DNA from: a virus
Virus record (IMG/VR): IMGVR_UViG_3300018080_000099
Coordinates: 192,001-256,000 of that record
Length of the DNA stretch: 64,000 nt
Reading direction: 5' to 3' (one strand)
Part shown: in pieces, positions 46,594 through 62,987 of the stretch
Position numbering within the stretch: the first letter of the stretch is position 1
How the letters are laid out: each line of letters begins with the position of its first letter
Program-made: the position numbers and the translations under genes
The notes under the pieces: model-generated
Database searches by the model: none
Told to the model about the DNA's origin: nothing
The model's input: only the letters and a program-made list of their open reading frames with translations

Positions 46594-46610
46594 GTATGAA
46601 AGAGAATAAA

Positions 46611-47351
46611 ATGAAAGTCGTTATTCCAGTGTACAACGCCGAAAAGTGGATTCAGAAATGTATCTGGTCTTTGTACAATCAGTCTTATCAGAACTGGGAA
46701 GCCGTTATTGTCAATGATGCGTCAACTGACAAGACGCTGGATGTTATTAAGGATTTCATGAAAGACATTCCAGCTGAAGAGGTTCACAAAAAGAAAAGGT
46801 TCCGTGTCCTTGACAGAACCATGAATGTAGGAGCCCTTGAAAATATCGACTATGGTACGGAGCTACTCTGTGACGATGATGAGGACGTAGTTGTGCTGTT
46901 GGACGGCGATGACTGGCTGGCGGCAAATGATGTCCTGACACATCTGAACGAACTGTATCAAGATGAAACTTGGCTAACCTACGGACAGTTTCAGTTCAAT
47001 AGTAACGGAAACATTTCAAGTAACCGACAGATAACCGACACCCGAACGTATAGAACGAAGCAGTCATTTTGTTCCTCACATTTGCGAACATATAAGTATA
47101 AGATATGGAAACGCATAAAGAAGGACGACCTTAAGAATGGTGCCGGTAAGTATTATCCGATGGCATGGGATTTGTCCATCATGTACCCATTGATTGAGAT
47201 GGCCGGACCAAAAAGAATCAAGTGTGCTGATAAGGTGATGTACATTTACAATAACCAGAATCCAATCAACGACCATAAGAAAAACTACAAGCTCCAAGTG
47301 AGCTTAGACTTTGAAATCAGAAAGAAGCCACAGTACGCAGAACTACCATGA
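46611..47351 (+). CDS. family 2 glycosyltransferase
   Basis: MKVVIPVYNAEKWI...VIVNDASTDKT. Alternative starts at 46596 or 46590 (GTG). Confidence 0.65.
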   Translation: MKVVIPVYNAEKWIQKCIWSLYNQSYQNWEAVIVNDASTDKTLDVIKDFMKDIPAEEVHKKKRFRVLDRTMNVGALENIDYGTELLCDDDEDVVVLLDGDDWLAANDVLTHLNELYQDETWLTYGQFQFNSNGNISSNRQITDTRTYRTKQSFCSSHLRTYKYKIWKRIKKDDLKNGAGKYYPMAWDLSIMYPLIEMAGPKRIKCADKVMYIYNNQNPINDHKKNYKLQVSLDFEIRKKPQYAELP

Positions 47352-48421
47352 AAGTTATTATCAACAGAAGCGGCGGTCCCTTAAAAATCCCAGAAATCAG
47401 AAAAGAGATTCCGTGGGATGGGAAGCAGTACATACTTAACGATATTCTGACTAACAAGTATCGCAAATACTTGGAGGTTGTCGATGTAGACAAACAAAAA
47501 GAGATTGAGGACTTGCAAGTTAAGGTCAGAGATTTGAAGGTTAATCTTGACAATACCATGATGGAAAACGACAAGCTCCAAGATTTCATTGGCAAGCTTC
47601 GTGACAATACAAAGATTCCTTGTTTGGACTTCTTGTATTCATTCCACTTCAACGAAAATATGGACGAGGCAGTTGAAAGACTGAGATGTTCCATTGAAAG
47701 CATACGGCACCAGAATGTTCGTGTCTGTGTTTGCAATACTTCCAAAAAGAGTATCAAAAGCAAGCTCCGTGGGCTGGGAAAGATTGCATATTTTCATAAT
47801 CCTTTGGAGCTGAATGTTTACAACAAGCCCAAGACAATCAATCTAGGAGTTAAGAAACTTGTCAAGACAGACTACTTCTTTCTCTCAGACATTGATTTGT
47901 ACTACCATCCGGACTTCGTTGCCAACATGGGAGTTGTTCTAAAGCTGACTGGGAATGTTCCTTACAGGATTGTTTTTCATAACAACAACATGGGACCCGG
48001 AGATTATCCTGAAAGTATTGAGGACTGTCACAATCTTTTCACAAACTCCAAAGATACCTCGAGGTCAATGAAGGGATTGGCACCGGGCAACGGATTAATT
48101 TACCGTCCTTCTTTTGAAGCCATTGAGGGGTTTGATGAAATGTATGTAGGGTACGGCCCAGAGGACGCGGACTTCAATTATAGAATCCGCAAGATATGTG
48201 AGTACATAGAAATAGATTTGGAAGGCTTCAACACGTATCATCTTTTCCATGCGAACCAAACTAGAGACTCACAAGAGTACGCTAACAATAGAATCAGATG
48301 TGACTACATGATGAAAATGGATAGAAAGAATAACTACAACATCATAAAGTCCGGGCAGATTGAACCGCCCAGAAAGCTAAAGTTTGTTATAGACGAGAAC
48401 ATTCGGGAAGTGGTAATATGA
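47348..48421 (+). CDS. glycosyltransferase with a beta4GalT-type (GT7-like) motif and an N-terminal coiled coil
   Basis: FLSDIDLYY DXD-like. EGFDEMYVGYGPEDADFNYRI resembles the GWGGEDDDxxxR block. Confidence 0.45.
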   Translation: MKVIINRSGGPLKIPEIRKEIPWDGKQYILNDILTNKYRKYLEVVDVDKQKEIEDLQVKVRDLKVNLDNTMMENDKLQDFIGKLRDNTKIPCLDFLYSFHFNENMDEAVERLRCSIESIRHQNVRVCVCNTSKKSIKSKLRGLGKIAYFHNPLELNVYNKPKTINLGVKKLVKTDYFFLSDIDLYYHPDFVANMGVVLKLTGNVPYRIVFHNNNMGPGDYPESIEDCHNLFTNSKDTSRSMKGLAPGNGLIYRPSFEAIEGFDEMYVGYGPEDADFNYRIRKICEYIEIDLEGFNTYHLFHANQTRDSQEYANNRIRCDYMMKMDRKNNYNIIKSGQIEPPRKLKFVIDENIREVVI

Positions 48422-49185
48422 TTATTCCAATGCTAAAAGGTGGAGTGGGAAACCAACTATTCCAAATTGCATGTGCATATGCTTATGCGAAAAAGCATGG
48501 CACAGACTTTGCCATTAACTATAGCCTGAGCTTTTGTCCTAATCAGGGATTTTCAGCACCCAAATACAAGGACACGCTTTTCAAGAACATATCTGTCACA
48601 ACAGTACATCCTCATAAAATCATGAAGGAGAACGGGAACGCCTACCGAGAACTTCCATTTCTTGAAGGCGACTTCATTTTGGATGGGTTCTTTCAGTCTG
48701 AGAAGTTCTTTGCGGATTGTGTAGACGAGATTAAAGAACTGTTTGTGTTCCCTGAAAATGTCAAGAGCGCTGTAGACAAATTCATGAAGGTAAAACTAAG
48801 TACGCCATCCAATCATCCCATTGCCGGAGTTCATATTCGAAGGGGAGACTACAAAAAATTCAGTCACGAATATATTCTCAATGGTTCGGAATACTACTTA
48901 GCCGCCGCCAAGCATCTGCCGGGTTTTGTGTCAGTGGTTTGTACAGACGACTGGAGTTCAGTGAGTAAGGAAATGACATTTGCCAAAGCCGAGAAGTCAC
49001 CATTCACAGACGAGGTTCACGACCTTTACCTTCTTTCCCAGTGTGATGCAGTTGTCATGTGTAACAGCAGTTTCTCATGGTGGGCGGCATTTCTTGGCAA
49101 AGATAAGAAGGTCATTGCTCCGAACAACTGGTTTGTCCACAAGTCCGCAGAGGACATGTATTGTAAGGATTGGATAAGAATATGA
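48418..49185 (+). CDS. alpha-1,2-fucosyltransferase (GT11)
   Basis: GGVGNQLFQIACAYAYA matches GT11 motif I (LGNQMFQYAFA). Size and the FFQSEKFF block are consistent. Confidence 0.7.
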   Translation: MIIPMLKGGVGNQLFQIACAYAYAKKHGTDFAINYSLSFCPNQGFSAPKYKDTLFKNISVTTVHPHKIMKENGNAYRELPFLEGDFILDGFFQSEKFFADCVDEIKELFVFPENVKSAVDKFMKVKLSTPSNHPIAGVHIRRGDYKKFSHEYILNGSEYYLAAAKHLPGFVSVVCTDDWSSVSKEMTFAKAEKSPFTDEVHDLYLLSQCDAVVMCNSSFSWWAAFLGKDKKVIAPNNWFVHKSAEDMYCKDWIRI

Positions 49186-50015
49186 TGGAAGTGAAAATAG
49201 TTGATAGGAACTTCGCTCACGCATATCTATTTGGCAACGGAGACTTGAAGATGTCTGCCAAAGAGATGCAGTGGTATAGGGGCAATGATGCGAGAGACAT
49301 TTGCTTTTTTACAGACATGACTCTGGGAGAAGTGAATAACTTTCAACTTCCACGGAGCCGTATCAATGTGGCATGGCTTTTGGAACCACCTTCAGTTGCT
49401 TTACAAACGTACAATTGGATTAAGTCAAATTACGAGTTCTTTGACTACGTTTTGACTTACAACAAGGAGTTGCTTTCGATTTCACCTAAGTTCAAATGGT
49501 ATCCACACGGCGGCTGTTGGATTTATCCTAAGGACTGGAAAGTCCATCGGAAGTCCAAAGACGTTTCCATGATTGCTTCCAACAAGAACTTTACAGCTGG
49601 ACATCGTTTGAGACATGATGTGATGAATCGGCTCGGTAGTAACATAGACTTAGTATGTGGACGAGGGCATAAACCCTTTGAATACAAACTCGATGTTTTG
49701 AAAGATTATAGATACTCCATAGTCATAGAGAATGGCAGATACGAAACATACTTCACAGAGAAGCTTATAGACTGCTTCATGACCGGAACAGTTCCGATTT
49801 ATTGGGGATGTTCGCTTAAGGGTTTGTTTGAGGAAGGCGGCATCTTGTACTTCGAAACAATAGATGAGCTACAAGAAATTCTGAGGAAAATCCGTGAGGG
49901 TGAGATTGATTATGACAAGATGCTTTGTTCGGTGTACTACAATGTCAAAGTCGCAGAACGATATGCAATAACTGAGAACTGGATTTACGAGAACTTCATA
50001 AAGAGGATAGTATGA
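49182..50015 (+). CDS. alpha-1,3/4-fucosyltransferase-like (GT10)
   Basis: YRYSIVIENGRYETYFTEKLIDCFMTGTVPIYWG matches the GT10 motif FYLAFENS...Y(I/V)TEK...G(A/T)VPVV. ATG at 49182 chosen over the upstream TTG. Confidence 0.6.
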   Translation: MMEVKIVDRNFAHAYLFGNGDLKMSAKEMQWYRGNDARDICFFTDMTLGEVNNFQLPRSRINVAWLLEPPSVALQTYNWIKSNYEFFDYVLTYNKELLSISPKFKWYPHGGCWIYPKDWKVHRKSKDVSMIASNKNFTAGHRLRHDVMNRLGSNIDLVCGRGHKPFEYKLDVLKDYRYSIVIENGRYETYFTEKLIDCFMTGTVPIYWGCSLKGLFEEGGILYFETIDELQEILRKIREGEIDYDKMLCSVYYNVKVAERYAITENWIYENFIKRIV

Positions 50016-51361
50016 TTAAGCTAGTAATTTTCGACCTCGATGGTGTCCTAACCGAATCAAAAGACTTACACTTCAATGCTTTGAATAGAGCTTTGGAGGA
50101 TTTCGGGTTCACCGCTATCACTTACAAAGAACACATCTCCAAGTATGATGGTAAGCCGACCGCAGTGAAGCTTGCGATAAAGGGAGTCGATGAAGAACTA
50201 CACCTGAAGATTAATGAGCGCAAGCAGGAAATCACGGCGGACCTTTTGGATAAGAAGATTAAGAAGGACGAGAAGTTTATTGACTTGTTCAAACGGCTGA
50301 AGCAAGACGGATACATTATCAACGTGGCATCCAATTCTGTGATGTACACGATACAGTTGGTTCTTTTCAAGATGGGAGTTATGCGGTATGTCGACCACAT
50401 CGTATCAAATCAAGATGTGGAATTTGGCAAACCTCATCCAGAGATGTACATGAAGTGTATGGTACATTCTAAGGTCGGCCCAAAGGACGCAATCATTATT
50501 GAGGATTCCTACGTGGGAAGGCAGGGTGCCTTCAACTCTGGGGCTCATCTGTGTGCAGTCCGAAATCCTGATGAAGTAACATACGAGTTCATTAAAAACA
50601 ATATTGCAATCGCAAACGGTGAGAAACCGAAGTGGAAGGGGAACAATATGAATATACTTATTCCTATGGCTGGCGCTGGTAGTCGGTTCACAAAGGCGGG
50701 ATTTACTTTCCCGAAGCCTTTGATTGAAGTAAACGGAAAGCCCATGATTCAGGTTGTCGTGGACAATATCAACATTGAAGGGAACTACATCTTCATTGTT
50801 CGCAAGGAACACTACGAGAAGTACAATCTGAATTACATGCTTGATATGATTGCGCCGGGCTGTAAGATTGTTCAGGTTGACCGTTTGACGGAAGGCGCGG
50901 CATGTACAACCCTTCTTGCCAAGGAATACATCGACAATGACGAACAGCTTTTGATTGCCAACTCAGACCAGTGGATTGACTGGGATAGCTCAGACTTCAT
51001 GTATTCCGTTCAGGGAAACCATGTGGACGGCGGAGTTCTGACATTCCCGAATGCTCATCCGAAGTGGTCTTATGCCAAGGTTGACAAGAACGGCTTTGTG
51101 ACTGACATTAAGGAGAAGAAGGTTATCTCCAACAAAGCAACTGTTGGTATCTATCATTGGAAACGAGGTTCGGATTATGTGAGGTTCGCTGAGCAAATGA
51201 TAGAGAAGGATGTTCGTGTCAATGGTGAGTTCTATGTGGCTCCTGTCTACAATGAAGCTATTGCCGACGGAAAGAAGTTTAAGATTTATGATGTGAAGAA
51301 GATGATGGGACTGGGAACACCGGAAGACTTGGACATCTTTTTGAAGGAAAAGCTTGGATGA
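50012..51361 (+). CDS. bifunctional HAD-phosphatase / sugar-phosphate nucleotidyltransferase
   Basis: N-terminal LVIFDLDGVLTESKD (HAD motif I). C-terminal half MNILIPMAGAGSRF...KPLIEVNGKPMI is the NTP_transferase signature. Confidence 0.6.
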   Translation: MIKLVIFDLDGVLTESKDLHFNALNRALEDFGFTAITYKEHISKYDGKPTAVKLAIKGVDEELHLKINERKQEITADLLDKKIKKDEKFIDLFKRLKQDGYIINVASNSVMYTIQLVLFKMGVMRYVDHIVSNQDVEFGKPHPEMYMKCMVHSKVGPKDAIIIEDSYVGRQGAFNSGAHLCAVRNPDEVTYEFIKNNIAIANGEKPKWKGNNMNILIPMAGAGSRFTKAGFTFPKPLIEVNGKPMIQVVVDNINIEGNYIFIVRKEHYEKYNLNYMLDMIAPGCKIVQVDRLTEGAACTTLLAKEYIDNDEQLLIANSDQWIDWDSSDFMYSVQGNHVDGGVLTFPNAHPKWSYAKVDKNGFVTDIKEKKVISNKATVGIYHWKRGSDYVRFAEQMIEKDVRVNGEFYVAPVYNEAIADGKKFKIYDVKKMMGLGTPEDLDIFLKEKLG

Positions 51362-51969
51362 AAATTGTAGTAGTCGGGATGTTTCGAGCAGGCAGTACGG
51401 TTTTGTTCAACATGATTCGTTATATGCTCATTGAGGAATATGGGAAAGACGAAGTGTACTCATGTTATTATCCTAAGCGCAATCCGAAGAAAGAGAAAAA
51501 ATATGTTGTGATGAAACAGCATGACTTTGATGCCGGCCTTCTTGAAGAATCCGATATGGTGTTTACTACAAGAAGGGACATCCGAGATGTCGTAGCATCA
51601 CTCATTCGGAGAGATGGGCGACATCGGTGGAAGTCCATTCCGAAAGTTTGTCAGTGGGCCAAGGACTGTTACGACGGATGGAAAAAACATTCAACGTATG
51701 AGTTTGTTTACGAAAGATATAAAGCCAATCCCTTGAAAGTCATCAAAGAAGTCGGTGCCATATTGAACATTGACTGTAAGGCTAGGAAGATTCAAGAAAA
51801 GTTGGAGGCCCTTAAAAAGCCACGACAACCAAGGGAAACTCTGATAATGTCAGCCAAACACGTTACAGATGGCTCAGTCCATTCATTTGCAAAGACATTG
51901 GACGAAAAGGAAATTAAAATTATAGAGGAAATGGCAAATGATTTACTGTATAGGAAACAGCCATGTTAA
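51358..51969 (+). CDS. sulfotransferase
   Basis: VGMFRAGSTVLFNMI resembles the 5'-PSB loop. TRRDIRDVVASLIRR resembles the 3'-PB motif. Confidence 0.55.
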   Translation: MKIVVVGMFRAGSTVLFNMIRYMLIEEYGKDEVYSCYYPKRNPKKEKKYVVMKQHDFDAGLLEESDMVFTTRRDIRDVVASLIRRDGRHRWKSIPKVCQWAKDCYDGWKKHSTYEFVYERYKANPLKVIKEVGAILNIDCKARKIQEKLEALKKPRQPRETLIMSAKHVTDGSVHSFAKTLDEKEIKIIEEMANDLLYRKQPC

Positions 51970-52564
51970 TACTTTTTCAAACTCCAAACCGTTATGCTTC
52001 AGCTTTCATAACAAGCATTTTGTTGGCCACAGTATAGGACCAATAATCGCTTATAACTTTAGGAAGAATCATCTTTCTAAAGTGCTGAACTATTTGAAGT
52101 CCACGAGTATCCAAAAGAAAAATGACTTCGTGACATTGGTTGTTGGGGAAGTTGACTGTAGACTTCATTTACCAAGGCAGGCAGATTTACAGAAAAGAAA
52201 GGACAAAGATATGGCTGAAGAATGTACTCAAAGATTGATGGAATGTTATGATGAGTTAAGAGATAAAGGATTCAGAGTACTTGTTTGTGGCACGCATCCT
52301 ACCACAACTTATACTGAAAAAGATATTGACAATGTAGTAGTCGGCCCGATATACGGAGATGTTGAGAGAAGAAATCAGATATGTTTGTACTGGAATGAGT
52401 CATTGAAAACCATGAGTGAAGAGCGGAATATCCCCTTCATTTCTATCTATAAATATCTTGTCGATGCAAACAACATTACTAAGATGGAATTCTATCAGGA
52501 CTATTGCCATCTTAAAAGCGATAGAGTTTTTGAATTTATCCTGAGGGAACTGGAATCATTATGA
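51938..52564 (+). CDS. hypothetical protein, possibly SGNH/GDSL-like hydrolase
   Basis: N-terminus MIYCIGNSHV weakly resembles SGNH block I. 208 aa. Confidence 0.3.
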   Translation: MIYCIGNSHVNTFSNSKPLCFSFHNKHFVGHSIGPIIAYNFRKNHLSKVLNYLKSTSIQKKNDFVTLVVGEVDCRLHLPRQADLQKRKDKDMAEECTQRLMECYDELRDKGFRVLVCGTHPTTTYTEKDIDNVVVGPIYGDVERRNQICLYWNESLKTMSEERNIPFISIYKYLVDANNITKMEFYQDYCHLKSDRVFEFILRELESL

Positions 52565-53316
52565 AATTGAGCTTCGATGATGTTAGAAACACGCAACAGG
52601 GCGCACCAGCTTTGATAGTCGCCCACGGGCCAAGTTCAAATGAATATTTGGACAAAATCGCTTACTACAAGAATCTGGGGTTTGTCATTGTAGGAACCAA
52701 TGACTGGTTCCTTTTTCACGATGAAGAACCTCATTATTCGGTAATGGCTAATAGTGTCTTTACAATTCAGACGAAACATGTTATCTTTAATAGATACAAT
52801 ACTAAGTTGGTGTATGCTGATTCAGTCGATGCGACTCCTAAGGAAATGGCAGAACAGGTTTTGAAAGTTGATTACCTTCCTTACGACCAACGCCACTTCA
52901 TGGGAATGCCGTGTGGATGCGGAGCCTGCTGTTCAAGGATAGACGGTTCAAGGCTTACGATTCAGGAAGAACTCCAAAAGTACTGTAACGCGGACAAGCA
53001 TTATGGAACGGGTGACACAGTTGCCCTCCATCAGATTGCTTTTGCAATCCTGTTAGGATGCAATCCGATTTACTTTGTGGGAGTTGACTTGGACTACCGA
53101 CTTGGCTTTGCAAGAAACACAGGAAACAAGACTTCAAAATCAGTTCACATTGGAGCTATAAACGATTATCGAGATAACATCCTAAAGGATATGCAGACAA
53201 TTAAAGAAATGGTTACTCCTTTGGGAGTGAAGATTGTAAACCTGAATAAAGCATCCACATGGGATGTGTTTGAAATTGGAGAGATTGATGAAGGTTTTCA
53301 GCCTAACGCCAGCTAG
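52561..53316 (+). CDS. Maf/DUF115-like or GT42 (CstII-like) nonulosonic-acid transferase (tentative)
   Basis: LIVAHGPSSNE and GCNPIYFVGVDLDY resemble CstII VIIAGNGPSLKE and GYKEIYLSGIDFYQ. Adjacent to the NeuA-like gene. Confidence 0.4.
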   Translation: MKLSFDDVRNTQQGAPALIVAHGPSSNEYLDKIAYYKNLGFVIVGTNDWFLFHDEEPHYSVMANSVFTIQTKHVIFNRYNTKLVYADSVDATPKEMAEQVLKVDYLPYDQRHFMGMPCGCGACCSRIDGSRLTIQEELQKYCNADKHYGTGDTVALHQIAFAILLGCNPIYFVGVDLDYRLGFARNTGNKTSKSVHIGAINDYRDNILKDMQTIKEMVTPLGVKIVNLNKASTWDVFEIGEIDEGFQPNAS

Positions 53317-53953
53317 AGGCGGCTCAAAAAGAATTCCCAACAAAGCTGTGGTTGACCTCTGTGGACGACCGCTTATTGAATGGACTCTGAGAGATTCAAT
53401 ACAGTCCAACCGGATTGACAAATCATATGTCAGCACGGATTCACAACTCATAAAGGACGAAATTCGGCAATTGCCCGTCGAAGTTGTGGATAGGCCTTCA
53501 GAGTTTGCTGGGGATAAATCTAGCTCTGAGTCGGTGGTAAAACATTGGCTGAGCACGCTGGACGAGAAGCCCGATATTATTGTGATGCTTCAGTGTACCG
53601 GACCATTCAGGCAGAGAGAAACTCTTGATAATGCCATTCAGAAACTGATAGATGAAAAGGCTGACAGTCTTTTTTTTGGCTCAGATTTGGGAAGGTGGAT
53701 TTGGTCAACAAGCAATGTTCCTCTAAATTACGACTACCGCAACCGAATAATGACTCAAGACAAAGAATGGGAGCTTGTGGAAGGCAGCGATTACATTTTC
53801 ACACGAAAGCTCTTTGAGGAAACTGGTTTTAGGCTTGGTGGAAAAATTGTTCATTACAAGATAGAAAAGCTGGAGAGTATAGATATAGACGACAAAGACG
53901 ATTTGATAATCGCTCGTGGAGTGGCTCAAACAAAGGGGTATATGTATGATTAA
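53288..53953 (+). CDS. CMP-nonulosonic acid synthetase (acylneuraminate cytidylyltransferase family)
   Basis: Start at in-frame ATG 53288. LTPARGGSKRIPNKAV is the family signature. Confidence 0.7.
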   Translation: MKVFSLTPARGGSKRIPNKAVVDLCGRPLIEWTLRDSIQSNRIDKSYVSTDSQLIKDEIRQLPVEVVDRPSEFAGDKSSSESVVKHWLSTLDEKPDIIVMLQCTGPFRQRETLDNAIQKLIDEKADSLFFGSDLGRWIWSTSNVPLNYDYRNRIMTQDKEWELVEGSDYIFTRKLFEETGFRLGGKIVHYKIEKLESIDIDDKDDLIIARGVAQTKGYMYD

Positions 53954-54875
53954 TCCTTGGAGAGAAGTGTACGACTTGCCACAATCAGTTGACCCTTGGA
54001 AGAACGGCGTTCCTGATTTTGCATTGTATTTGGACGTCGAGCCTACGAACTTCTGTAATTTTAAGTGCGAGTTCTGTGTAGGACAGCAACAGGGTAAAAG
54101 GAAAAGAGGCCACATGAGCCTCGATATGTTTGCTGAGATTTGTCGGCAGGCAGAGAAGTACGGATGTCGCGGAATTAGGTTTCTCCGGTGGGGAGAACCA
54201 CTCCTCAACAAAGACTTTTTTGAGATGATTCGAATGGCTAAAAACCACGGACTGTTGACACACGTTACTACCAATGGAATATTACTAAAGGATGCAGAGC
54301 AGTTCATTGAAACGGGAATAGATAGCGTAATCATCTCGCTACAAGGACTAAACGCTGAAGAATACAAGAGGCTTCGTAAGGGAAATTATGATGTCCTTGT
54401 ATCTCGAATTGTGAACCTGAAATGTACCAGAGATGAACTAGGTGCCAACAATCCTTTCATTTCTCTTTCAACAACGGTAACTGATGAAACCCAAGAAGAA
54501 GTTGATGCCTTCAAAAAGAAGTGGGAAGGGATTGTAGATTACGTTGGTGTGGGATATACTTGGTTCAAACGCTTAGAAGATAAGAGTGGAGTTCAAGACT
54601 ATCTCTCACGGGCAAAGAAGCTTCCACATCTTTTCAAATGTCAAGAAGTCATGGTGAAGCTCAGCATAGACTGGGACGGCACAGTCTCACCATGTTGCTT
54701 GGACTATGACCAACAGCTTGCCGTTGGCAACATTCAAAATGATGATTTGATGGAGCTTTGGAACTCTGAGGATGTAAAAGCTATTCGAACATTGCTCTCT
54801 CACAAAAGACAGGACATGTTTACTCTTTGTCAAACATGTGAATTGAACTACAACTTCCGAGGGAAAGATGAGTAA
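53946..54875 (+). CDS. radical SAM enzyme with a C-terminal SPASM-like Cys cluster
   Basis: CNFKCEFC (CxxxCxxC). Later CQEV...SPCC and CQTC clusters. Start at in-frame ATG 53946. Confidence 0.7.
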   Translation: MINPWREVYDLPQSVDPWKNGVPDFALYLDVEPTNFCNFKCEFCVGQQQGKRKRGHMSLDMFAEICRQAEKYGCRGIRFLRWGEPLLNKDFFEMIRMAKNHGLLTHVTTNGILLKDAEQFIETGIDSVIISLQGLNAEEYKRLRKGNYDVLVSRIVNLKCTRDELGANNPFISLSTTVTDETQEEVDAFKKKWEGIVDYVGVGYTWFKRLEDKSGVQDYLSRAKKLPHLFKCQEVMVKLSIDWDGTVSPCCLDYDQQLAVGNIQNDDLMELWNSEDVKAIRTLLSHKRQDMFTLCQTCELNYNFRGKDE

Positions 54876-55530
54876 CTACACTGATTTGATTTATCCGGAT
54901 GAAGTCAATCTTTATCCGGCGAAGTTGTGCAAGTACATTCATCAAAGATTCTTTGCGGCTGGTGGTAGGATGCTTGACATCGGATGTAGTAAGGGAACCC
55001 ACCTGAAGGAATTTGAAAGACTGGGGCTAGACACATTTGGGGTTGACCTTCGTAAAGACATGGATAGCGATAAGGTATTCGCCTGCAATTTGGAAAATGA
55101 CCCACTGCCATTTGATGACTTCAAATTTGACTTCGTTTGGTCAAAGTCTGTCGTGGAACACATTACGAATGCTGATAATCTTTTGGATGAAATCTATCGA
55201 GTGCTAAAGCCTCGTGGTGTTTGTGTTATTATGACACCGGACTGGGAAAGCCAGATGTCTCACTTCTGGGATGATTACACACATGTAAAGGCTTGGACAG
55301 TCAAAAGTCTACCGAATGCTTTACGAATGCGAGGCATGGATGCCCGATGTGAAAAGTTCTATCAACTACCTTTCGTATGGAAACATCCGTGGCTGAAGAT
55401 TATTCCTAAGGTGGTTTCAGTTTGTCCTCAGTCTTGGAAGTGGAAAGATGATTCAATGTCGAATGGAAATGACAGGAAGCTCATCAGATTTTCTAAGGAA
55501 CAAATGCTTTTAGCTTGGGGTGTGAAATGA
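54868..55530 (+). CDS. class I SAM-dependent methyltransferase
   Basis: RMLDIGCSKGTHL (motif I) and LKPRGVCVI (post-I/II) blocks. Confidence 0.6.
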   Translation: MSNYTDLIYPDEVNLYPAKLCKYIHQRFFAAGGRMLDIGCSKGTHLKEFERLGLDTFGVDLRKDMDSDKVFACNLENDPLPFDDFKFDFVWSKSVVEHITNADNLLDEIYRVLKPRGVCVIMTPDWESQMSHFWDDYTHVKAWTVKSLPNALRMRGMDARCEKFYQLPFVWKHPWLKIIPKVVSVCPQSWKWKDDSMSNGNDRKLIRFSKEQMLLAWGVK

Positions 55531-55817
55531 TAATCAGGGTTGACATAGACGAAACTATATGTGAGAAGGTTGACAATGCCCGGTATCAAGATGCTACGCC
55601 GATACCCGAAAACATCGCCAAGATAAACCAACTATATAATGATGGACACACCATCATCTACTGGACGTCAAGAGGAATGACTACAGGGTTGGATTGGTCT
55701 GCTGTTACGCAAAGACAGCTCGTAGAGTGGGGTTGCAAGTTCAACAAGCTGGAAATGGGTAAGCCTTTCTATGACATGTTGATTTGTGACAAGAGTAAAA
55801 GGATTGAAGAAATATGA
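55527..55817 (+). CDS. small HAD-like hydrolase (tentative)
   Basis: MIIRVDIDETIC start resembles the HAD DxD motif. 96 aa. Confidence 0.3.
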   Translation: MIIRVDIDETICEKVDNARYQDATPIPENIAKINQLYNDGHTIIYWTSRGMTTGLDWSAVTQRQLVEWGCKFNKLEMGKPFYDMLICDKSKRIEEI

Positions 55818-56464
55818 GAAATGCTATCTTGCTCTCATATCCTCGCTGTGGAAATAGCTGGCTGAGATTTTGTGTGGAGTTCCTAAGTCAAAGGAAAACA
55901 ACTCCGAACAGTCCTAATGCTCAGAAGTTTAGGGAATCAGTTGGTTTGGAGTTTGATACTGAGAAGTTTTTGATGTTCAAGTATCATGGCTGGCGAGATG
56001 TGAAGGAGGATTTATCGGACAGCATCATTCTTCTTTTGAGGAACTACAAGGAATGTATTCCGAGACATTGTAGGCGTATCGAAGATGATGCTACATCTCA
56101 TGGGGAAACACACCCACTCAAGTTCAGTTACATTGACAACCTTTTGTACTTTGAGAGGTCGTCATTCAAGAATAAGCATGTTGTCTATTATGAGGATTTG
56201 ATTGTACAACCGATGGTTGTTTTGAGGGACCTACTGAACTTTTTGGATGTTGATGATGGCCGATTGCTGGAGTTCTTTGAGAGGTACGATGAAATAAAGG
56301 ACAAGTCTATTGAAGCTTATAGTGAATCTCAAACTCAGGGCAAGGAAGTATTAGTCCACTCCAAGAAGTTCTCACGGGAAGAAATATTGAAGTTTGATGA
56401 ATTGGTTAAAGCCCAAAGCCCAGAGTGCTATGAAAAATACTTAATCAGATATTATGGGGTTTGA
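55814..56464 (+). CDS. sulfotransferase (second copy)
   Basis: LLSYPRCGNSWLRFCVE resembles the 5'-PSB motif. LLLRNYKECIPR resembles the 3'-PB motif. Confidence 0.5.
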   Translation: MRNAILLSYPRCGNSWLRFCVEFLSQRKTTPNSPNAQKFRESVGLEFDTEKFLMFKYHGWRDVKEDLSDSIILLLRNYKECIPRHCRRIEDDATSHGETHPLKFSYIDNLLYFERSSFKNKHVVYYEDLIVQPMVVLRDLLNFLDVDDGRLLEFFERYDEIKDKSIEAYSESQTQGKEVLVHSKKFSREEILKFDELVKAQSPECYEKYLIRYYGV

Positions 56465-56466
56465 AA

Positions 56467-56799
56467 ATGCAAATTGTAAAGAAGGTATGGGGCGAGGAAC
56501 GATGGTTAGCCAATGCTGACTTTTGTTGTAAGGAGCTTATCCTTGAGAGAGGATTTAGGTGTAGTCTGCACTACCACAAAAAGAAAGATGAACTGTTCTA
56601 TGTTTTGGAAGGACAAGTTTTGCTTGAGATAAACGGAGAAGAGCATGTCTTAAGTCCCGGTGCTTGGTACAGAGTTTACCCTAACGACATCCACCGATTT
56701 AACGGATGGGCTCGCTCCTTAATACTTGAAAGCTCAACACATCACGAAGATGAAGATTCATATAGGATTGAACCTAGTGGGAGGATGTATGAACACTAA
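56467..56799 (+). CDS. cupin-domain protein (sugar isomerase/epimerase-like)
   Basis: KVWGEERWL...HYHKKKDELFYVLEG...HRF is the two-His cupin signature. ATG at 56467. Confidence 0.45.
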   Translation: MQIVKKVWGEERWLANADFCCKELILERGFRCSLHYHKKKDELFYVLEGQVLLEINGEEHVLSPGAWYRVYPNDIHRFNGWARSLILESSTHHEDEDSYRIEPSGRMYEH

Positions 56800-57625
56800 G
56801 CTTGTAGCCGAAATCGGCATCAACCATAATGGCGATATGGAAATCGTCAAGAAGCTTATTGACAATGCCGTTGAAGGCGGATGTCAGTATGTGAAGTTCC
56901 AGAAGAGGACTGTTGAGGATGTTTACACACCGGAAGAACTTGACAAATACCGCGAGTCTCCGTGGGGAACAACCAACCGTCAGCAGAAGATGGGATTGGA
57001 GTTTGGCAAAGATGAGTATGACGAAATAGACGCATATTGCAAAGAGAAGGGGATTGAATGGTTCGCCTCTCCGTGGGATGCCAAATCCGTTGACTTTCTC
57101 ATGGAATACAACCCTCCTTACATCAAAGTTGCTTCGGCAATGGTAACAAACAAACCAATGCTGGAAAAGATTAAGGAAGCAGTTGACGGAACTGATACTA
57201 GAGTTATTGTAGCTGTTGGTATGACAACCGAAGATGAATTGGAAGCTTACTTGGACATCCTTGGTGAATACACGGACTATATTCTTTCATGTACTTCAAG
57301 TTATCCTACACCAGTTGAGGATATGAATATGAATCGTATTAAAACGCTTCAGGATAAGTATGGTCCGTTGTATAACATTGGATTCTCAAACCATTCACAG
57401 GGAATCACTTTCATGCTCATGGCATACTGCCTTGGCGCTAAAATGATTGAGTACCACATCACACTTGACAGAACAATGTACGGAAGCGACCAAGCAGCAT
57501 CCATTGAGACTCCCGGTGTTAGGAGAATCAGAAAGTATCTTGAATCATTTGATAAGGCTTGGGGCAATGGGGCGCTTGGATGTCAGCCTAGTGAAGTTCC
57601 TATCAAGGAGAAGTTGAGAAAATGA
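56789..57625 (+). CDS. nonulosonic acid synthase (NeuB/PseI/LegI family)
   Basis: LVAEIGINHNGDMEIVKKLIDNAVEGGCQYVKFQ is the NeuB-family N-terminal signature. Start at 56789 with RBS gggagga. Confidence 0.75.
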   Translation: MNTKLVAEIGINHNGDMEIVKKLIDNAVEGGCQYVKFQKRTVEDVYTPEELDKYRESPWGTTNRQQKMGLEFGKDEYDEIDAYCKEKGIEWFASPWDAKSVDFLMEYNPPYIKVASAMVTNKPMLEKIKEAVDGTDTRVIVAVGMTTEDELEAYLDILGEYTDYILSCTSSYPTPVEDMNMNRIKTLQDKYGPLYNIGFSNHSQGITFMLMAYCLGAKMIEYHITLDRTMYGSDQAASIETPGVRRIRKYLESFDKAWGNGALGCQPSEVPIKEKLRK

Positions 57626-58494
57626 GAGAGCTGATAATTTTTATGGCCTCCCGAGGCCCAAACATTTTGACTTCAAGGACAACCGAAGCTATTGATTCAA
57701 TCATGAACAACATTGGGATTGAGGACTACGCCTTCTACTTTGTCTTTGACAATGAAGATTACATGAACCACTTCGTTTCCTATGTTCCACCTGAACACAT
57801 TGAGAAAGCTGTTATGTCTCAAGGAACGACATGGGCTCAAATCTTTAACCAGTTCTTTGACGAATACTGCATGACGGATAAGTCACGATACATTCTTGTA
57901 TCACACGATGATGTCATTGCCATGACGAAGAACTTCTATCCAATGACGATGGAAGAAATTTCAGGTTATGAGGACCAAATCGGATGGATAACATACTCAA
58001 GCATAGGCTACTTCCATCAGGACAAACGAACCTCAAACTCTGTGAGAGCTGGATTCTTTAAGGACAGAGGAAAGTTCCCTAGCATTTTTGAGTTCCATTC
58101 CGACATCTTGGACTATCCTACAAGAGCAGTTAGGACGTTCGGACCGTTCACTCACTTCAATTTGGTAAAGACAAGTGCTTTGAAAGAGATTGGTAAGTGT
58201 GAGGACTGGACAGTTGGTGGAGTTCTGACAGACGAGGATTGGTCGCTTGAGTCCTTGATAAAGGGATACTACAATGTGTGGGTGCCGACAGTCCATTACT
58301 TCCATCCCAACAAACCAACCAGACGCATTTATGATACTTTGTCGGATGCTCCACAAGCCCACGAGGGCTTCAGAAATAAGTGGGGATTCGATACACCAAT
58401 ACCATATCAGGAAGCTGACAAGTTGATTGAGAAGTATCCGCACTTGGCAGACTATGCTCACAAGAACTCATACGATTGGATGTACTTAAAATGA
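57622..58494 (+). CDS. putative GT-A-fold glycosyltransferase
   Basis: ILVSHDDVIAM DXD-like motif. 290 aa. Confidence 0.3.
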   Translation: MRELIIFMASRGPNILTSRTTEAIDSIMNNIGIEDYAFYFVFDNEDYMNHFVSYVPPEHIEKAVMSQGTTWAQIFNQFFDEYCMTDKSRYILVSHDDVIAMTKNFYPMTMEEISGYEDQIGWITYSSIGYFHQDKRTSNSVRAGFFKDRGKFPSIFEFHSDILDYPTRAVRTFGPFTHFNLVKTSALKEIGKCEDWTVGGVLTDEDWSLESLIKGYYNVWVPTVHYFHPNKPTRRIYDTLSDAPQAHEGFRNKWGFDTPIPYQEADKLIEKYPHLADYAHKNSYDWMYLK

Positions 58495-58817
58495 ACGAAG
58501 CAAGAATAGAAGATTTTACGCGTGGGTGGTTTGTAGGCGACTTTGACCCCACACTATATAAGACAGGTGATGTTGAAGTTGCCTATAAAACTTACAAAGC
58601 TGGTGACAAAGAAGCCAAACACTATCACAAGATAGCAACCGAGATTTCCATTGTGACTAAGGGAGTCGTCCTGATGAACGGTAAGGAATACCGTAAGGGC
58701 GACATCATTGTTATGGAACCTTACGATGTGGCAGACTTTAGTGTAGTTGAAGATGCTGAGAACATTGTTGTCAAGATTCCCGGTGCTACCAATGACAAGT
58801 ACGAGGTCGAAGAATGA
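58491..58817 (+). CDS. cupin-domain protein
   Basis: Small beta-barrel-like sequence with HYHK...E. Start at in-frame ATG 58491. Confidence 0.35.
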   Translation: MNEARIEDFTRGWFVGDFDPTLYKTGDVEVAYKTYKAGDKEAKHYHKIATEISIVTKGVVLMNGKEYRKGDIIVMEPYDVADFSVVEDAENIVVKIPGATNDKYEVEE

Positions 58818-59263
58818 TTTATATTGCTCACAGGGGAAACATAGACGGCCGGATGCCAGAGGCTGAGAACCATCCAAATCATATAAAGTACGCTTTATTT
58901 GAAGGATATGATGTGGAGATTGACTTCTGGTTAGTCGATGGTAAGATAGTGCTTGGACATGATGAACCCCAGCATGAAGTTGATAAAAGGTTCCTAATCC
59001 ATCCGAACATATGGATTCATGCTAAGAACCCCGAAGCATTTGAAATGATTGTTGGAAACCAACTCAAAGGGTTTTGGCACACGCAAGAGGACTATGCGCT
59101 CACAACGGATGGACATATCTGGGTTTACCCCGGCAACCAACTACTTAAAGATTCAATAGCTGTGCTGCCTGAAACAGTCACGAACTATGGGGTGAGTGAC
59201 TTGCAACAGTGTTTTGCCATTTGTTCCGATGAAGTCAAGAAGTTCAAGGGGTTGCTCCAATGA
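58814..59263 (+). CDS. glycerophosphodiester phosphodiesterase-like protein
   Basis: IAHRGN...E...EIDFWLVDGKIVLGHD is the N-terminal GDPD signature. 149 aa. Confidence 0.45.
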   Translation: MIYIAHRGNIDGRMPEAENHPNHIKYALFEGYDVEIDFWLVDGKIVLGHDEPQHEVDKRFLIHPNIWIHAKNPEAFEMIVGNQLKGFWHTQEDYALTTDGHIWVYPGNQLLKDSIAVLPETVTNYGVSDLQQCFAICSDEVKKFKGLLQ

Positions 59264-59958
59264 ACTTTACATTCGGCATCATCACAAACAAAGGAACTGA
59301 GAAGCGAATCAATACAATCATAGATTCTATTGAAACTCAGAAGATTCCTGAGTACGAAGTCTTGATTGTCGGTTCCGCCAAGATTGAAAGGGAACACACC
59401 AGAGTCATTCCTTTTGATGAGTCTAAGAAGCGTGCATGGATTACCAAGAAGAAGAACATGCTAACTCAAGAAGCTTCATTTGAGAACGTAGTTTACTTGC
59501 ACGACTATATCAAGTTTGAGGAAGGATGGTACGATGGTTTCCTTCAGTTCGGAAATGATTTCAAGGTATGCATGAACGTCATTCAAAACAAAGACGGCTA
59601 CCGATACCGGGACTGGAGTTTGTGGGCTGAAGATTCTCCGAAGATTGGTTTCAAGAAGGGTGAGTGTATTCTTCCTTACTGGGTAAGACACTTGACAAAG
59701 TATATGTATATCTCAGGAGCTTACTGGGTTGCTAAGAAAGATGTCATGGAAGAGTTTCCTTTGGATGAAAAATTGACCTGGGGAGCTGGTGAGGATGTTG
59801 AGTGGTCCAAACGAATCCGAGAGAAGTATGATTTCTCAATGAATGATAAGTCCAAAGTAAAACTCATGAAACAGAAAGCTGTTATTCTAAGAGCCATAAG
59901 TGATAAAAGATACAATGAGGTAATGAACATTGAGAGAGATGGAGAGAAGGAGACTTGA
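59260..59958 (+). CDS. hypothetical protein (possible glycosyltransferase)
   Basis: 232 aa ORF in the glycan cluster. Confidence 0.3.
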   Translation: MNFTFGIITNKGTEKRINTIIDSIETQKIPEYEVLIVGSAKIEREHTRVIPFDESKKRAWITKKKNMLTQEASFENVVYLHDYIKFEEGWYDGFLQFGNDFKVCMNVIQNKDGYRYRDWSLWAEDSPKIGFKKGECILPYWVRHLTKYMYISGAYWVAKKDVMEEFPLDEKLTWGAGEDVEWSKRIREKYDFSMNDKSKVKLMKQKAVILRAISDKRYNEVMNIERDGEKET

Positions 59959-60499
59959 CTTCCACATCCCTGAAAGTGGTTTGATACTGGACATGGGAGG
60001 GTTTTGTGGGCAGTGGACTCAAACGGCATTCAATCACTTTGGGTGTCGTGTTTATGTTATGGAGCCCATTAAGGAGTTCTATGAGAAAATCGTCCAGCGA
60101 TTCCAAGGGAACGACAAGATTGTTCCTTTGAACTTCGGATTGGCAGGGGAGAATACTTCAACCACCATTTATAAGAGTTTGGATGGCTCAAGCATCTTTA
60201 CAAAGAATGGTCCCTCAGAAGTCATTGAGTTGAGAAACGCCAGTGAGTTCATGGAGGAAATGGAGATAAGCTCAGTAGATTTGGCAAATGTCAACGTGGA
60301 GGGTTCGGAGTATGACATTCTCCCAAACCTGATGGAGTCGGGGAAGATTGAAGTTTTCAAGAACATTCAGATACAGTTCCACAAAAACCGAGAAGGTTAT
60401 GTGGAGAAGCGAAAAGCAATACAGGAATCATTAAGTCAGACGCACACACAGATTTGGAACTACGAAATGGCTTGGGAGTGTTGGAGGAGAAATGTCTAA
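59930..60499 (+). CDS. FkbM-family methyltransferase
   Basis: ILDMGGFCGQWT...VYVMEP resembles the FkbM domain. Alternative start at 59939. Confidence 0.5.
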   Translation: MREMERRRLDFHIPESGLILDMGGFCGQWTQTAFNHFGCRVYVMEPIKEFYEKIVQRFQGNDKIVPLNFGLAGENTSTTIYKSLDGSSIFTKNGPSEVIELRNASEFMEEMEISSVDLANVNVEGSEYDILPNLMESGKIEVFKNIQIQFHKNREGYVEKRKAIQESLSQTHTQIWNYEMAWECWRRNV

Positions 60500-61415
60500 G
60501 ATATTGATTACGGGTGCTAAAGGGCTTGTCGGTTCAGCCATTCCAATAAGCATGGATAATGTTTTGCTTGTTCCTAAAAGGTCGGATATGGATTTGATGA
60601 ATGAGCAAGATACTTGGTCATACATTTCATATCACAAGCCGGACTCTGTTATTCATTGTGCCGCTAAGGTTGGTGGGCTTGCAGGGAATATGAATCATAT
60701 GGGAGAGTTCTTTTATGAGAACATGCTAATGACAACTCAGCTCATAGAACTTTGTCGGCAGGCAGGAGTCAAGAAGGTTCTGTCCTTTCTGTCAACCTGT
60801 ATCTTTCCGGACAAAGCTGAATATCCATTGACTGAGGACCAAATACTTCTTGGGCCTCCGCATGAATCCAACTACGGTTACGCATATGCCAAACGCATGA
60901 CGTACATCCAGAGTTGTGCCTATCGTCAACAATATGGAATGAATTGTATCTGTGTTGTGCCGACAAACATCTACGGCCCCAGAGACAACTATGATTTGGA
61001 TAATGGACATGTGCTACCATCTCTCATACACAAATGCTACTTAGCTAAGCAGAACAAGACTGAGTTTGTGGTGTGGGGAAGTGGTGCGCCTTTAAGGGAG
61101 TTCATTTTCTCTGAGGATATTGGTAAGTTAGTATTGAAACTATTGGAGGATTACAATGAGGAAGAACCTATCATCCTTACAACGGGTGATGAAATTCCTA
61201 TCGGGGTGGTTGCTGGACTTGTGGCAAAGGCAATGGGCTACAAAGGCAAAATCAAATTTGATACGAGCAAGCCAGATGGACAATTCCGCAAGCCGTCATC
61301 AAATGCTAAGCTCATGGCTTTATATCCTGATTTCAAGTTCACACCAATAGAGATTGGTATTCAGCGCGCAGTTGATTGGTTTTGCCACAATTATCCAAAC
61401 GTGAGGGGAGCATGA
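60492..61415 (+). CDS. fcl: GDP-L-fucose synthase (GDP-4-keto-6-deoxymannose 3,5-epimerase/4-reductase)
   Basis: ILITGAKGLVGSAI, AAKVGG, YAYAKR, VPTNIYGPRDN, VVWGSGAPLREF and GYKGKIKFDTSKPDG align with recalled E. coli Fcl. Confidence 0.8.
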   Translation: MSKILITGAKGLVGSAIPISMDNVLLVPKRSDMDLMNEQDTWSYISYHKPDSVIHCAAKVGGLAGNMNHMGEFFYENMLMTTQLIELCRQAGVKKVLSFLSTCIFPDKAEYPLTEDQILLGPPHESNYGYAYAKRMTYIQSCAYRQQYGMNCICVVPTNIYGPRDNYDLDNGHVLPSLIHKCYLAKQNKTEFVVWGSGAPLREFIFSEDIGKLVLKLLEDYNEEEPIILTTGDEIPIGVVAGLVAKAMGYKGKIKFDTSKPDGQFRKPSSNAKLMALYPDFKFTPIEIGIQRAVDWFCHNYPNVRGA

Positions 61416-61852
61416 GCCAGTATATTCCTCAGGATAAGTACGACTACATTTTAACGCACATGCCTATTGCTTGTGTGGATGTTTGCATTGTGTCAGAGAA
61501 GGGCATCCTTCTTGTCAAAAGAAACACTGAGCCTGCGAAAGGAACTTGGTGGGTGCCCGGCGGAAGAGTTCACAAAGGAGAAACGTTGAGGGACTGTGCA
61601 TATCGTAAGTGTTTGGAAGAAGTCAACTTACACTGTTCCATTGGACCGATAGTTCATACTGATGAAACGGTATTTGATACAGGGCCATCGGGCATCCCGA
61701 TTCATTCAATCAATGTATGCTTTTTAGCAATCCCTCATACTGCTGATGTCAAGTTAGATGACTACAGTGATAGTCATGCATGGGTACCTCATATAGCTGA
61801 CAATTTCCATCCGTACGTTCGGAAGTGTTTTGAAGGTTGCGGATTCAAATAA
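61412..61852 (+). CDS. Nudix hydrolase, GDP-mannose mannosyl hydrolase-like
   Basis: Nudix box GGRVHKGETLRDCAYRKCLEEVNL. Adjacent to fcl as in gmd-fcl-gmm clusters. Start at in-frame ATG 61412. Confidence 0.6.
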   Translation: MSQYIPQDKYDYILTHMPIACVDVCIVSEKGILLVKRNTEPAKGTWWVPGGRVHKGETLRDCAYRKCLEEVNLHCSIGPIVHTDETVFDTGPSGIPIHSINVCFLAIPHTADVKLDDYSDSHAWVPHIADNFHPYVRKCFEGCGFK

Positions 61853-61863
61853 GTCTTGACAAC

Positions 61864-61871
61864 TATAAATA
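61864..61871 (+). promoter_or_regulatory. TATAAATA late-promoter motif upstream of the tmRNA
   Basis: aactataaataatta, nearly identical to the context at 51-65. Confidence 0.35.
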
Positions 61872-61898
61872 ATTATAGTATATTGTCTTAACCACAGT

Positions 61899-62258
61899 GG
61901 GGCTGTACTTGGCTTTCGACTGGGTATGTTTGTTGGATGACTGCACGCCGAGGTTGGTCAGTTGGCCTCGTAAAAAGCTGACTAAATTATAAGCGCAGAA
62001 GATTACGCTTACGCACAGGCTGCTTAATCAGTCTGCCTGAAACCCTCAAATGCCATCGGTGAGGCGAGTAAGGACCAATTTAGATGGTGTAGGGAACCTG
62101 AGGCATCATAAGGGGACCGAAGTAAATGATGCAACATATCGCCAGTATGTACTCGTTTACTGGACTTACTGGCGATTATTTGACAGTAAACTAAGCGTGT
62201 GAATGAAGTCCCAACGGGTGTACGCAACACGGCGGTTCGATTCCGCCCAGCTCCACCA
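61899..62258 (+). ncRNA. ssrA: tmRNA (SsrA)
   Basis: 5' GGGGCUG pairs with 3' CAGCUCCACCA. T-arm GGCGGUUCGAUUCCGCC. GGCCUCGUAAAAAGC block as in E. coli tmRNA. Resume codon GCA at 61995 opens a tag ORF GCA GAA GAU UAC GCU UAC GCA CAG GCU GCU UAA (AEDYAYAQAA*). Confidence 0.8.
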
Positions 62259-62448
62259 AGTTTACACTGAGAGGAATTGTTGTTCAAATACGAGCTTGGC
62301 TTCGGCCATTGTATCAGTGTACTTCCCATTGCGTGGAGTAACTGATTTATATGATGTTGAAAGAAGATTAGCCCTCTTCGCTTTTGAATCACTTATAAGG
62401 GACTCCTTAATTAGATGTGAGGTAGATATAACCCATATCTAAAGTATT

Positions 62449-62456
62449 TATAAATA
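62449..62456 (+). promoter_or_regulatory. TATAAATA motif
   Basis: Exact motif 15 nt upstream of the RBS of the 62472 gene. Confidence 0.25.
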
Positions 62457-62471
62457 ATTTTGGAGAAAGGA

Positions 62472-62987
62472 ATGAAATTTGAAGAGTACTACCTAAAAGA
62501 AGAAGATATGCCACAGTACCAGCTGTTTTGCGACATGGACGGTGTTCTCACAGACTGGGAACAAGCTTTCCTGAATCTAGGTGTAACCAAGTTGACAGGA
62601 GAGAAGTTCGAAGAAAAGAACGGCAAAGCAGCTCTTTGGGCTGTCATTACCAAACACGGCAAGCTAGACTTCTGGGAAAACATGCCGTGGACAGAAGATG
62701 GTAAGAAACTGTGGAACTATATCAAGAAGCACAAACCTACCATACTAACGACCCCCGCGAGAAATAAATACAGTAGGGATGGCAAGAAGCTTTGGATTGC
62801 CAGAGAACTTGGCAAAGATGTTGAGTACATCTTTGAGAAGGATAAGTTCAAGCACGCCAATCCACAAGCCATTCTTATTGATGATTTTGATACGAAGATA
62901 AATGACTGGGTGAACCATGACGGTGTTGGCATCCTTCATGTGACTGCCGATGACACAATCAAGCAGTTAAAGGAGTTTGGATTCTAA
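62472..62987 (+). CDS. HAD-family 5'(3')-deoxyribonucleotidase-like protein, MxFxEYYL N-terminal family
   Basis: Begins MKFEEYYLKEED. FCDMDGVLTDW is HAD motif I. RBS ggagaaagg. Confidence 0.5.
   Translation: MKFEEYYLKEEDMPQYQLFCDMDGVLTDWEQAFLNLGVTKLTGEKFEEKNGKAALWAVITKHGKLDFWENMPWTEDGKKLWNYIKKHKPTILTTPARNKYSRDGKKLWIARELGKDVEYIFEKDKFKHANPQAILIDDFDTKINDWVNHDGVGILHVTADDTIKQLKEFGF

Follow-up and report, generated by a model that had tools for sequence, protein, structure and literature searches.

Introduction

Transfer-messenger RNA (tmRNA, ssrA) genes are well documented in phages. Bxz1-like mycobacteriophages and Bacillus phage G appeared as carriers of ssrA in a 2014 list (PMC4131195), tmRNA together with SmpB was described in huge phages in 2020 (PMC7162821), and phage tmRNAs were the subject of a further report (PMC12484599). 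A survey of 2022 found tmRNA in 402 of 18,146 phage genomes (2.3%), in 133 distinct forms (PMC9004378). In the present study, IMG/VR by itself yielded over 100 tmRNAs in two pattern scans. The original prediction for the locus described here, which was made from the DNA sequence, held that tmRNA genes are rare in phages and known from a few large myoviruses; given the counts above, this understates their occurrence.

Here we characterize a tmRNA gene found in a 64-kb window (the whole stretch of viral DNA that was analysed, 64,000 nt), which exact protein matches placed in a 263,805-bp metagenome contig (ena:ERZ27256796:k141_2651556). Judged from its sequence, the gene is likely to be a functional one-piece tmRNA of a ~264-kb T4-like phage, inherited within a clade of such phages. 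As with the phage tmRNAs already known, it is a complete gene in a large lytic phage genome with other translation- or RNA-related genes; unlike them, it carries a different tag and has no detectable sequence similarity to a collection of 50,697 phage genomes. Some huge phages encode SmpB, whereas none was seen here in the ~71 kb read. Melnitz, a phage of OM43, and the pelagimyophages have two-piece tmRNAs, and the likeness to them is that the phages are T4-like, that the tmRNA directly follows a sigma-70-type early promoter and that there is no integrase (PMC9004378). On the other hand, the window tmRNA is one-piece and not permuted, it is without a glutamine riboswitch or other Rfam element, and its putative early promoter has a late-promoter motif nested in it.

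Comparison with cellular and T4 counterparts gave a similar mixture. E. coli ssrA and the Rfam family RF00023 share with the window gene a 7-bp acceptor stem with G3:U70, a T-arm, an encoded CCA, helix 2 and a pseudoknot 1 (PK1) containing GGCCUCGUAAAAAGC. In E. coli ssrA, too, AUA lies upstream of GCA, the tag has 10 residues and closes with Ala-Ala, and the stop codon sits in the loop of a hairpin; its three pseudoknots further downstream have predicted counterparts in the window gene. Unlike bacterial tmRNAs, the window tmRNA is phage-encoded, has no adjoining smpB, lies behind a predicted composite early/late phage promoter, shows Gln at position -3 of the tag in place of Leu, Val or Met, and is at most 63% identical to the sampled ones. 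The late-promoter octamer TATAAATA is identical to that of the T4 late promoters, which are used by gp55/gp33-modified RNA polymerase, and, as in T4, it is enriched, strand-biased, mostly intergenic and found 15-70 nt upstream of structural-gene starts in a genome with T4-like core genes. In contrast to T4, the octamer at the window tmRNA overlaps a putative sigma-70 promoter.

Results

The gene is a full-length one-piece tmRNA

ARAGORN called a one-piece tmRNA gene (ssrA) of 360 nt, with the CCA encoded, at 61899-62258 on the plus strand, and this was the sole RNA gene called in the 64-kb window. A covariance-model search with RF00023 matched the same coordinates at 121.3 bits (E 7e-47), well over the gathering score of 47, and the match covered model positions 1-374 of 374. 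The two calls thus coincide over the full length, in agreement with the original prediction that the element is a tmRNA. The features of the locus are listed in Table 1.

The acceptor stem reads GGGGCUG/CAGCUCC with a G3:U70 pair, and is followed by the discriminator A and the encoded CCA; the T-arm reads GGCGG-UUCGAUU-CCGCC. G3:U70 is the identity element for alanine. The block GGCCTCGTAAAAAGC, which had been described as conserved with E. coli SsrA, is indeed an exact match in E. coli K-12 ssrA, and GGCCUCGUAAAAAGC in PK1 was also found to be identical to E. coli ssrA by pattern search. Note that the blastn alignment against E. coli genomes was confined to the tRNA-Ala-like 3' end; the shared 15-mer was confirmed by pattern search. 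In the mRNA-like domain, an alanine resume codon opens a short frame that closes with Ala-Ala and an in-frame stop. Both ARAGORN and the sequence confirmed the tag reading frame as first proposed, namely AEDYAYAQAA-stop beginning at GCA. This resume codon is preceded by AAAUUAUAAGC, and the stop codon UAA sits in the loop of a hairpin at 62016-62035. Downstream of it, standard pairs in the window sequence allow all the stems of PK2-PK4 to be drawn. At the level of sequence, the gene carries the sequence and structure hallmarks of a tmRNA, with PK2 and PK3 as predicted elements.

Table 1. Coordinates of the tmRNA features and flanking elements in the 64-kb window.
Feature	Position	Strand	Remark
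NUDIX hydrolase gene, upstream neighbour	61412..61852	+	last gene of sugar-synthesis cluster
-35 hexamer TTGACA, sigma-70-type	61856..61861	+	17-nt spacer to TATATT; 11/12 matches
TATAAATA, T4-type late-promoter motif	61864..61871	+	within sigma-70 spacer; conserved in L132 and L133
-10 hexamer TATATT	61879..61884	+	ends 14 nt before G1; identical in L132 and L133
Predicted 5' leader, removed by RNase P	61885..61898	+	inferred from hexamer positions and established tmRNA maturation
Acceptor stem 5' strand, positions 1-7	61899..61905	+	pairs with 62248-62254; contains G3:U70
Helix 2 5' strand, positions 23-50	61921..61948	+	pairs with 62195-62226
Pseudoknot 1, stems 51-55/68-72 and 59-65/78-84	61949..61982	+	contains block GGCCUCGUAAAAAGC
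Tag reading frame	61995..62027	+	resume codon GCA at 61995, AEDYAYAQAA, stop UAA 62025-62027
Pseudoknots 2-4	62044..62191	+	PK2 62044-62087, PK3 62097-62132, PK4 62138-62191; stems found by inspection
T-arm 62231-62247, acceptor 3' strand 62248-62254, ACCA 62255-62258	62231..62258	+	window sequence and Rfam
Non-coding spacer	62259..62471	+	no canonical terminator; late-promoter TATAAATA at 62449-62456 serves next gene
5'-3' deoxyribonucleotidase-like protein, 171 aa, downstream neighbour	62472..62987	+	phrog_2643, E 4e-25

Phage relatives and covariation

Pattern scans gave five more tmRNAs with the AEDYAYAQAA tag, all of them on phage contigs: one on a 149-kb IMG/VR contig (L009) and four on metagenome contigs (L131, L132, L133 and L134). 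Note that the relatives other than L009 were retrieved by a pattern demanding the exact AEDYAYAQAA tag, so that conservation of the tag in the family is partly by construction; the tag codons of these relatives, selected as they were by tag, show synonymous differences only. The window tmRNA is 61-71% identical to the five relatives, and 66-71% identical to the four closest, versus a maximum of 63% and a median of 58% for ~100 sampled bacterial tmRNAs with similar tags. Because the four closest phage relatives are nearer than the sampled bacterial tmRNAs, the gene appears to have been inherited within a phage lineage. On the same figures, with ~100 bacterial tmRNAs sampled, a recent capture from a host was rejected.

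Covariation was counted on a MAFFT alignment (A3) of the six family tmRNAs. In this alignment, 74.8% of the cells pair, versus 37-47% when the partners are slid, and 32 pairs are altered on both sides, a number that was reached by 0 of 500 shuffles. The acceptor stem and tRNA-like T-arm named in the original prediction hold across the six members. Specifically, the acceptor stem is 100% paired, with G3:U70 invariant in 6/6 and C5-G68 swapped to G5-C68, and the T-stem is 93% paired, with 4/5 pairs changed on both sides. Helix 2, drawn as segments 2a-d, is 70-92% paired and has 10 pairs changed on both sides. The two stems of PK1 are 100% and 95% paired, and 5 pairs are changed on both sides, the compensatory changes leading from CGAGG/CCUCG to CGUGG/CCACG, CAUGG/CCAUG and AGCGG/CCGCU. 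Stem 2 of PK4 is 84% paired across the family, and 42-67% of the cells pair in PK2 and PK3, on a MAFFT alignment that is unreliable in that region. Folding of the four pseudoknots therefore left PK1 backed by covariation and PK2-PK4 drawable, with PK2 and PK3 lacking covariation support where the alignment is poor.

A homologue of the downstream neighbour gene lies 3' of the tmRNA in L009 and L131-L133 (58-63% amino-acid identity), and other nearby genes are also common to the loci. L134 has different neighbours, including a T4 Rnl1-type RNA ligase. Among 80 IMG/VR loci with a homologue of the neighbour gene, no tmRNA was found except on one contig that was already known. Two RNA patterns that did not use the tag matched many other viral tmRNAs in IMG/VR and no new family member.

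Several other kinds of viral tmRNA were seen alongside. Many IMG/VR contigs of 100-360 kb (including L338, L340, L348, L355, L361 and L370) carry tmRNAs of 367-385 nt with unusually long tags of 24-26 residues, of which GEEKSSFTWEDAMAFIGADYAVAA, AVELSTMTFEDAMAFVGADYAVAA and GNTSIWDVINGFVGAPATEVEYAVAA are examples; the motif CUAAnCnUGUGAAYGARG is common to these long-tag viral tmRNAs and the AEDYAYAQAA family. Short one-piece tmRNAs of ~265 nt with the tag AKTTSFALAA are present in L004 and L008, and permuted two-piece tmRNAs with the tag AEPCFALAA or ADESLALAA in L005-L007. In L005 and L006, the ARAGORN tmRNA call overlaps a tRNA-Trp gene.

A late-promoter motif nested in a putative sigma-70-type promoter

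The 46-nt gap between the stop codon of the NUDIX gene and the tmRNA is filled by a predicted composite promoter, in which 27 nt separate TATAAATA from G1 of the tmRNA (Table 1). There are 18 copies of the octamer in the window against 2.25 expected, and 17 of these are on the plus strand. Of the 17 plus-strand copies, 12 are located outside long ORFs, and 9 are followed at 15-70 nt by a Shine-Dalgarno sequence and a start codon. The late motif upstream of the post-tmRNA gene (62445-62456) is part of a palindrome, TATTTATAAATA, whose two strands each match TATAAATA; this explains the one copy counted on the minus strand of the window. In L132 and L133, two overlapping copies of TATAAATA were seen directly 3' of the tmRNA.

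TTGACA-17-TATATT is the only sigma-70 site with at least 11/12 matches on either strand of the window under the prediction criteria used. When 128 kb were searched with looser criteria, sigma-70 matches of at least 11/12 were not enriched (2 observed vs 2.2 in shuffles), and significance of the match by itself was rejected after these shuffles. Because the match alone is not statistically unusual, the weight of the sigma-70 promoter lies on its position and conservation. Upstream of the tmRNA, L132 has TTGACC, 3 nt, TATAAATA, 6 nt and TATATT (10/12), and L133 has TTGACA, 4 nt, TATAAATA, 6 nt and TATATT (11/12). The composite is kept in these two relatives despite tmRNAs that are only ~70% identical and upstream genes that differ. 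No promoter of its own was found upstream of the tmRNA in L009, L131 and L134, where the tmRNA is probably co-transcribed with the upstream gene.

The tmRNA had originally been predicted to be driven by a T4-type late promoter. This holds with respect to TATAAATA itself, which is genuine, enriched, strand-biased and mostly intergenic, but the sigma-70 pair in which the motif is nested had been overlooked. The arrangement suggests that the tmRNA promoter is a nested early (host sigma-70) and late (T4-type) promoter, and transcription both early and late is the better reading because L132 and L133 keep the composite in front of their tmRNAs. Expression in the late phase only, from TATAAATA alone and with the flanking TTGACA and TATATT being coincidental, could account for the strong enrichment and strand bias of the octamer and for its position before structural genes, and chance alone would give about two near-consensus sigma-70 sites in a window of such size. 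We nevertheless regard late-only expression as unlikely, since both hexamers remain 17-18 nt apart in L132 and L133 amid sequence that has diverged, flanking hexamers of this kind are seen at none of the other TATAAATA sites in the window, and the tmRNA of the T4-like phage Melnitz follows an early promoter (PMC9004378). With regard to the T4-type late factors, neither gp55 nor gp33 was annotated among the scanned window proteins, within the ~71 of 264 kb read.

Tag, degron and host range

When 185,579 species genomes were scanned for A[DE]DY.YA.AA-stop, at least 120 loci matched. The tag-type matches listed were mostly from Desulfobacterota (Desulfobulbaceae, Desulfobacterales, Desulfocapsa and Desulfosarcina), and fewer were from Chlorobi, Salinibacter/Longimonas, Fibrobacter and other MAGs. 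The earlier suggestion that the tag sequence hints at the host clade is thus borne out, as the type is concentrated in Desulfobacterota among the matches listed, and the tag narrows the host search mostly to this group plus a few other sediment or anaerobe lineages. Use of the Shine-Dalgarno sequence is strong (33-41 of the 47 starts); such strong use and a canonical -35/-10 promoter speak against a Bacteroidota host.

Position -3 of the bacterial A[DE]DY.YA.AA tags is occupied by Val, Leu, Met and, once, Ala, with Gln in 0 of 120 among the matches listed. AEDYAYAQAA was confined to phage contigs among these matches, and Gln was present at -3 in all six phage lineages found. None of the ~116 other IMG/VR viral tmRNAs ends in QAA. 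By structural and kinetic evidence, Ala-Ala-COO- is the dominant ClpXP determinant, and changes at -3 or at Tyr -5 raise KM only modestly (PMC7652416). On these grounds, the possibility that Gln at -3 abolishes the degron was rejected. Because Tyr -5 and Ala-Ala-COO- are retained, the tag should remain a degron; AEDYAYAQAA is most likely still of the ClpXP type, and is perhaps somewhat weaker.

A more far-reaching scenario can be drawn, in which the phage clade would have evolved its own degron (YAQAA) and the phage tmRNA would replace the host tmRNA in infection, both early and late through the composite promoter. This would alter the fate of rescued polypeptides, for example by slower ClpXP turnover or by a different adaptor or protease. 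Along with the CCA-adding enzyme, kinase and RNA-ligase genes in the vicinity, it would also shield phage translation from abortive-infection nucleases that cleave mRNA or tRNA. We consider this scenario distinctly unlikely. A purpose other than mere rescue capacity, namely tagging of nascent host proteins for amino-acid recycling or an altered fate of the rescued proteins via Gln at -3, also appears quite improbable. The recycling idea has been raised for Melnitz (PMC9004378), and the absence of Gln at -3 from the like-type bacterial tags listed and from the other viral tmRNAs would agree with a special role of the tag. However, a tmRNA has no known means of choosing host over phage ribosomes, changes at -3 shift the ClpXP KM only modestly in E. 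coli, and the bacterial tag comparison rests on the at least 120 loci listed.

Predicted action in ribosome rescue

On the preferred reading, that of a functional tmRNA adding rescue capacity, transcription would begin early with host RNA polymerase, and the late-modified polymerase would keep the tmRNA on late in infection, with predicted start sites near 61891 for the sigma-70 promoter and near 61877 for the late promoter. Host RNase P would cut the resulting 7-22-nt leader to give G1, and host nucleases would trim the 3' end to the encoded CCA. Once charged by host AlaRS through G3:U70, the RNA would be delivered by host SmpB and EF-Tu to ribosomes whose A site is empty after stalling on mRNAs that are broken or lack a stop codon. 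We assume that the SmpB of the host is used, because no smpB was found by tblastn in the window, L001 or the relatives. Note that the smpB and integrase searches cover ~71 kb of the 264-kb genome, and that tblastn did detect smpB next to ssrA in many of the bacterial control loci. Translation would then resume at GCA, (A)AEDYAYAQAA would be added, and the reading would end at UAA, by which the ribosome would be freed. The benefit to the phage may be extra capacity for ribosome rescue during host mRNA decay or when defence nucleases cleave mRNA or tRNA. The nearby genes for a CCA-adding enzyme, a kinase and an ADP-ribosyltransferase, together with the Rnl1-type ligase in L134, hint at an RNA-damage context.

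The RNA could instead act as a decoy or inhibitor that titrates host SmpB or competes with host tmRNA, thereby shutting down host trans-translation. As no phage smpB was seen in the readable ~71 kb, the RNA must compete for host SmpB, and a TLD-only molecule of mycobacteriophage DS6A has been proposed to act likewise (PMC4131195). The tRNA-like domain alone would however suffice for such an inhibitor, whereas here the full mRNA-like domain is kept at 61-71% identity, including PK1, the AUA upstream of the resume codon, the 10-codon frame and the stop in the hairpin loop. Inhibition of host trans-translation is therefore highly improbable as the role of the gene.

Genome context and phage origin

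The window contains a T4-like module with scaffold, major head protein, head-tail adaptor, sheath stabiliser, and small and large terminase genes, and T4-like tail genes for sheath, tube, and baseplate hub and wedge. The terminase is ~38% identical to those of T4-like cyanophages. The tmRNA had been predicted to be phage-encoded, and this is supported because the 263.8-kb contig carries a module of T4-like head, tail and terminase genes. The tmRNA is flanked on both sides by genes and regulatory motifs of the phage, with no att/integrase arrangement. Neither blastn nor megablast found DNA similarity to 50,697 phage records for the tmRNA or 24 kb of the window. On two shorter contigs from other datasets, the tmRNA locus recurs with flanks that are identical; in total it was assembled in three independent datasets. 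Although ssrA is a classic prophage integration site, with intA lying just after ssrA in E. coli K-12, it is extremely improbable that the tmRNA is a host ssrA beside an integrated prophage (as for CP4-57 at E. coli ssrA) or that the contig is an assembly chimera, since the window and a further 7.4 kb yielded neither an integrase nor smpB, the genes are all co-oriented with a uniform G+C of 0.38-0.46, late-promoter motifs of the phage occur both before and after the tmRNA, the flanks are identical in the three independent assemblies, the five relatives are on phage contigs, and AEDYAYAQAA was in no bacterial genome among the tag-scan matches listed.

In the spacer following the phage tmRNA, 0 canonical terminators were found (fold z-scores of -0.5 and -2.0 in 62259-62471), and no other Rfam family was matched. 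Further along, in L001 at 17856-20248 (~4.3-6.7 kb past the window end), the gene for a CCA-adding enzyme (PolyA_pol) is apparently split by a GIY-YIG homing-endonuclease gene, and genes for an AAA_33/Zeta-toxin-like kinase and an ART-PolyVal ADP-ribosyltransferase lie near it. These genes downstream of the tmRNA may form an island for RNA repair or host takeover.

On the upstream side, a ~20-kb cluster for nonulosonic-acid/sugar synthesis and modification occupies ~42000-61852 of the window in this T4-like phage, with genes for NeuB, cytidylyltransferases, radical SAM/SPASM proteins, several methyltransferases, a sulfotransferase-like protein, a cupin, an epimerase and the NUDIX hydrolase. 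In L132 and L133, a gene with a sugar-epimerase-like end, as judged by eye, lies just upstream of the tmRNA. Two tail-tube paralogues, both phrog_45, were also seen ~24 kb apart at 10144-10695 and 34690-35232.

A further observation concerns an N-terminal decapeptide, M-x-F-x-E-Y-Y-L-x-E, which is shared by otherwise unrelated proteins (for example MKFEEYYLKE, MGFREYYLSE and MRFDEYYLTE). Its starts are at 41091, 41496, 62472, 63172 and 63475 in the window and at 15233 and 16877 in L001. The carriers include the deoxyribonucleotidase-like protein and the ART-PolyVal ADP-ribosyltransferase, and the motif is present in the relatives as well. We take the decapeptide to resemble the ~10-residue capsid targeting sequence of T4, which ends in an L/I-x-E prohead-protease site. 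By this analogy, the motif suggests that the proteins bearing it are a head-packaged, injected set; the concept of the capsid targeting sequence (CTS) is described in PMC3012670.

Discussion

The locus is a well-supported new addition to a known class and leaves existing knowledge unchanged, as phage tmRNAs are already well documented. To our knowledge, phage tmRNAs have often been annotated, and none has been shown to work. The particular points of this locus are the conserved composite promoter and Gln at -3 of the tag. Being full-length, backed by covariation and accompanied by a small set of diverged relatives, the gene offers a clean experimental case: the conserved promoter predicts expression throughout infection, and the tag differs from the sampled bacterial tags at one defined position.
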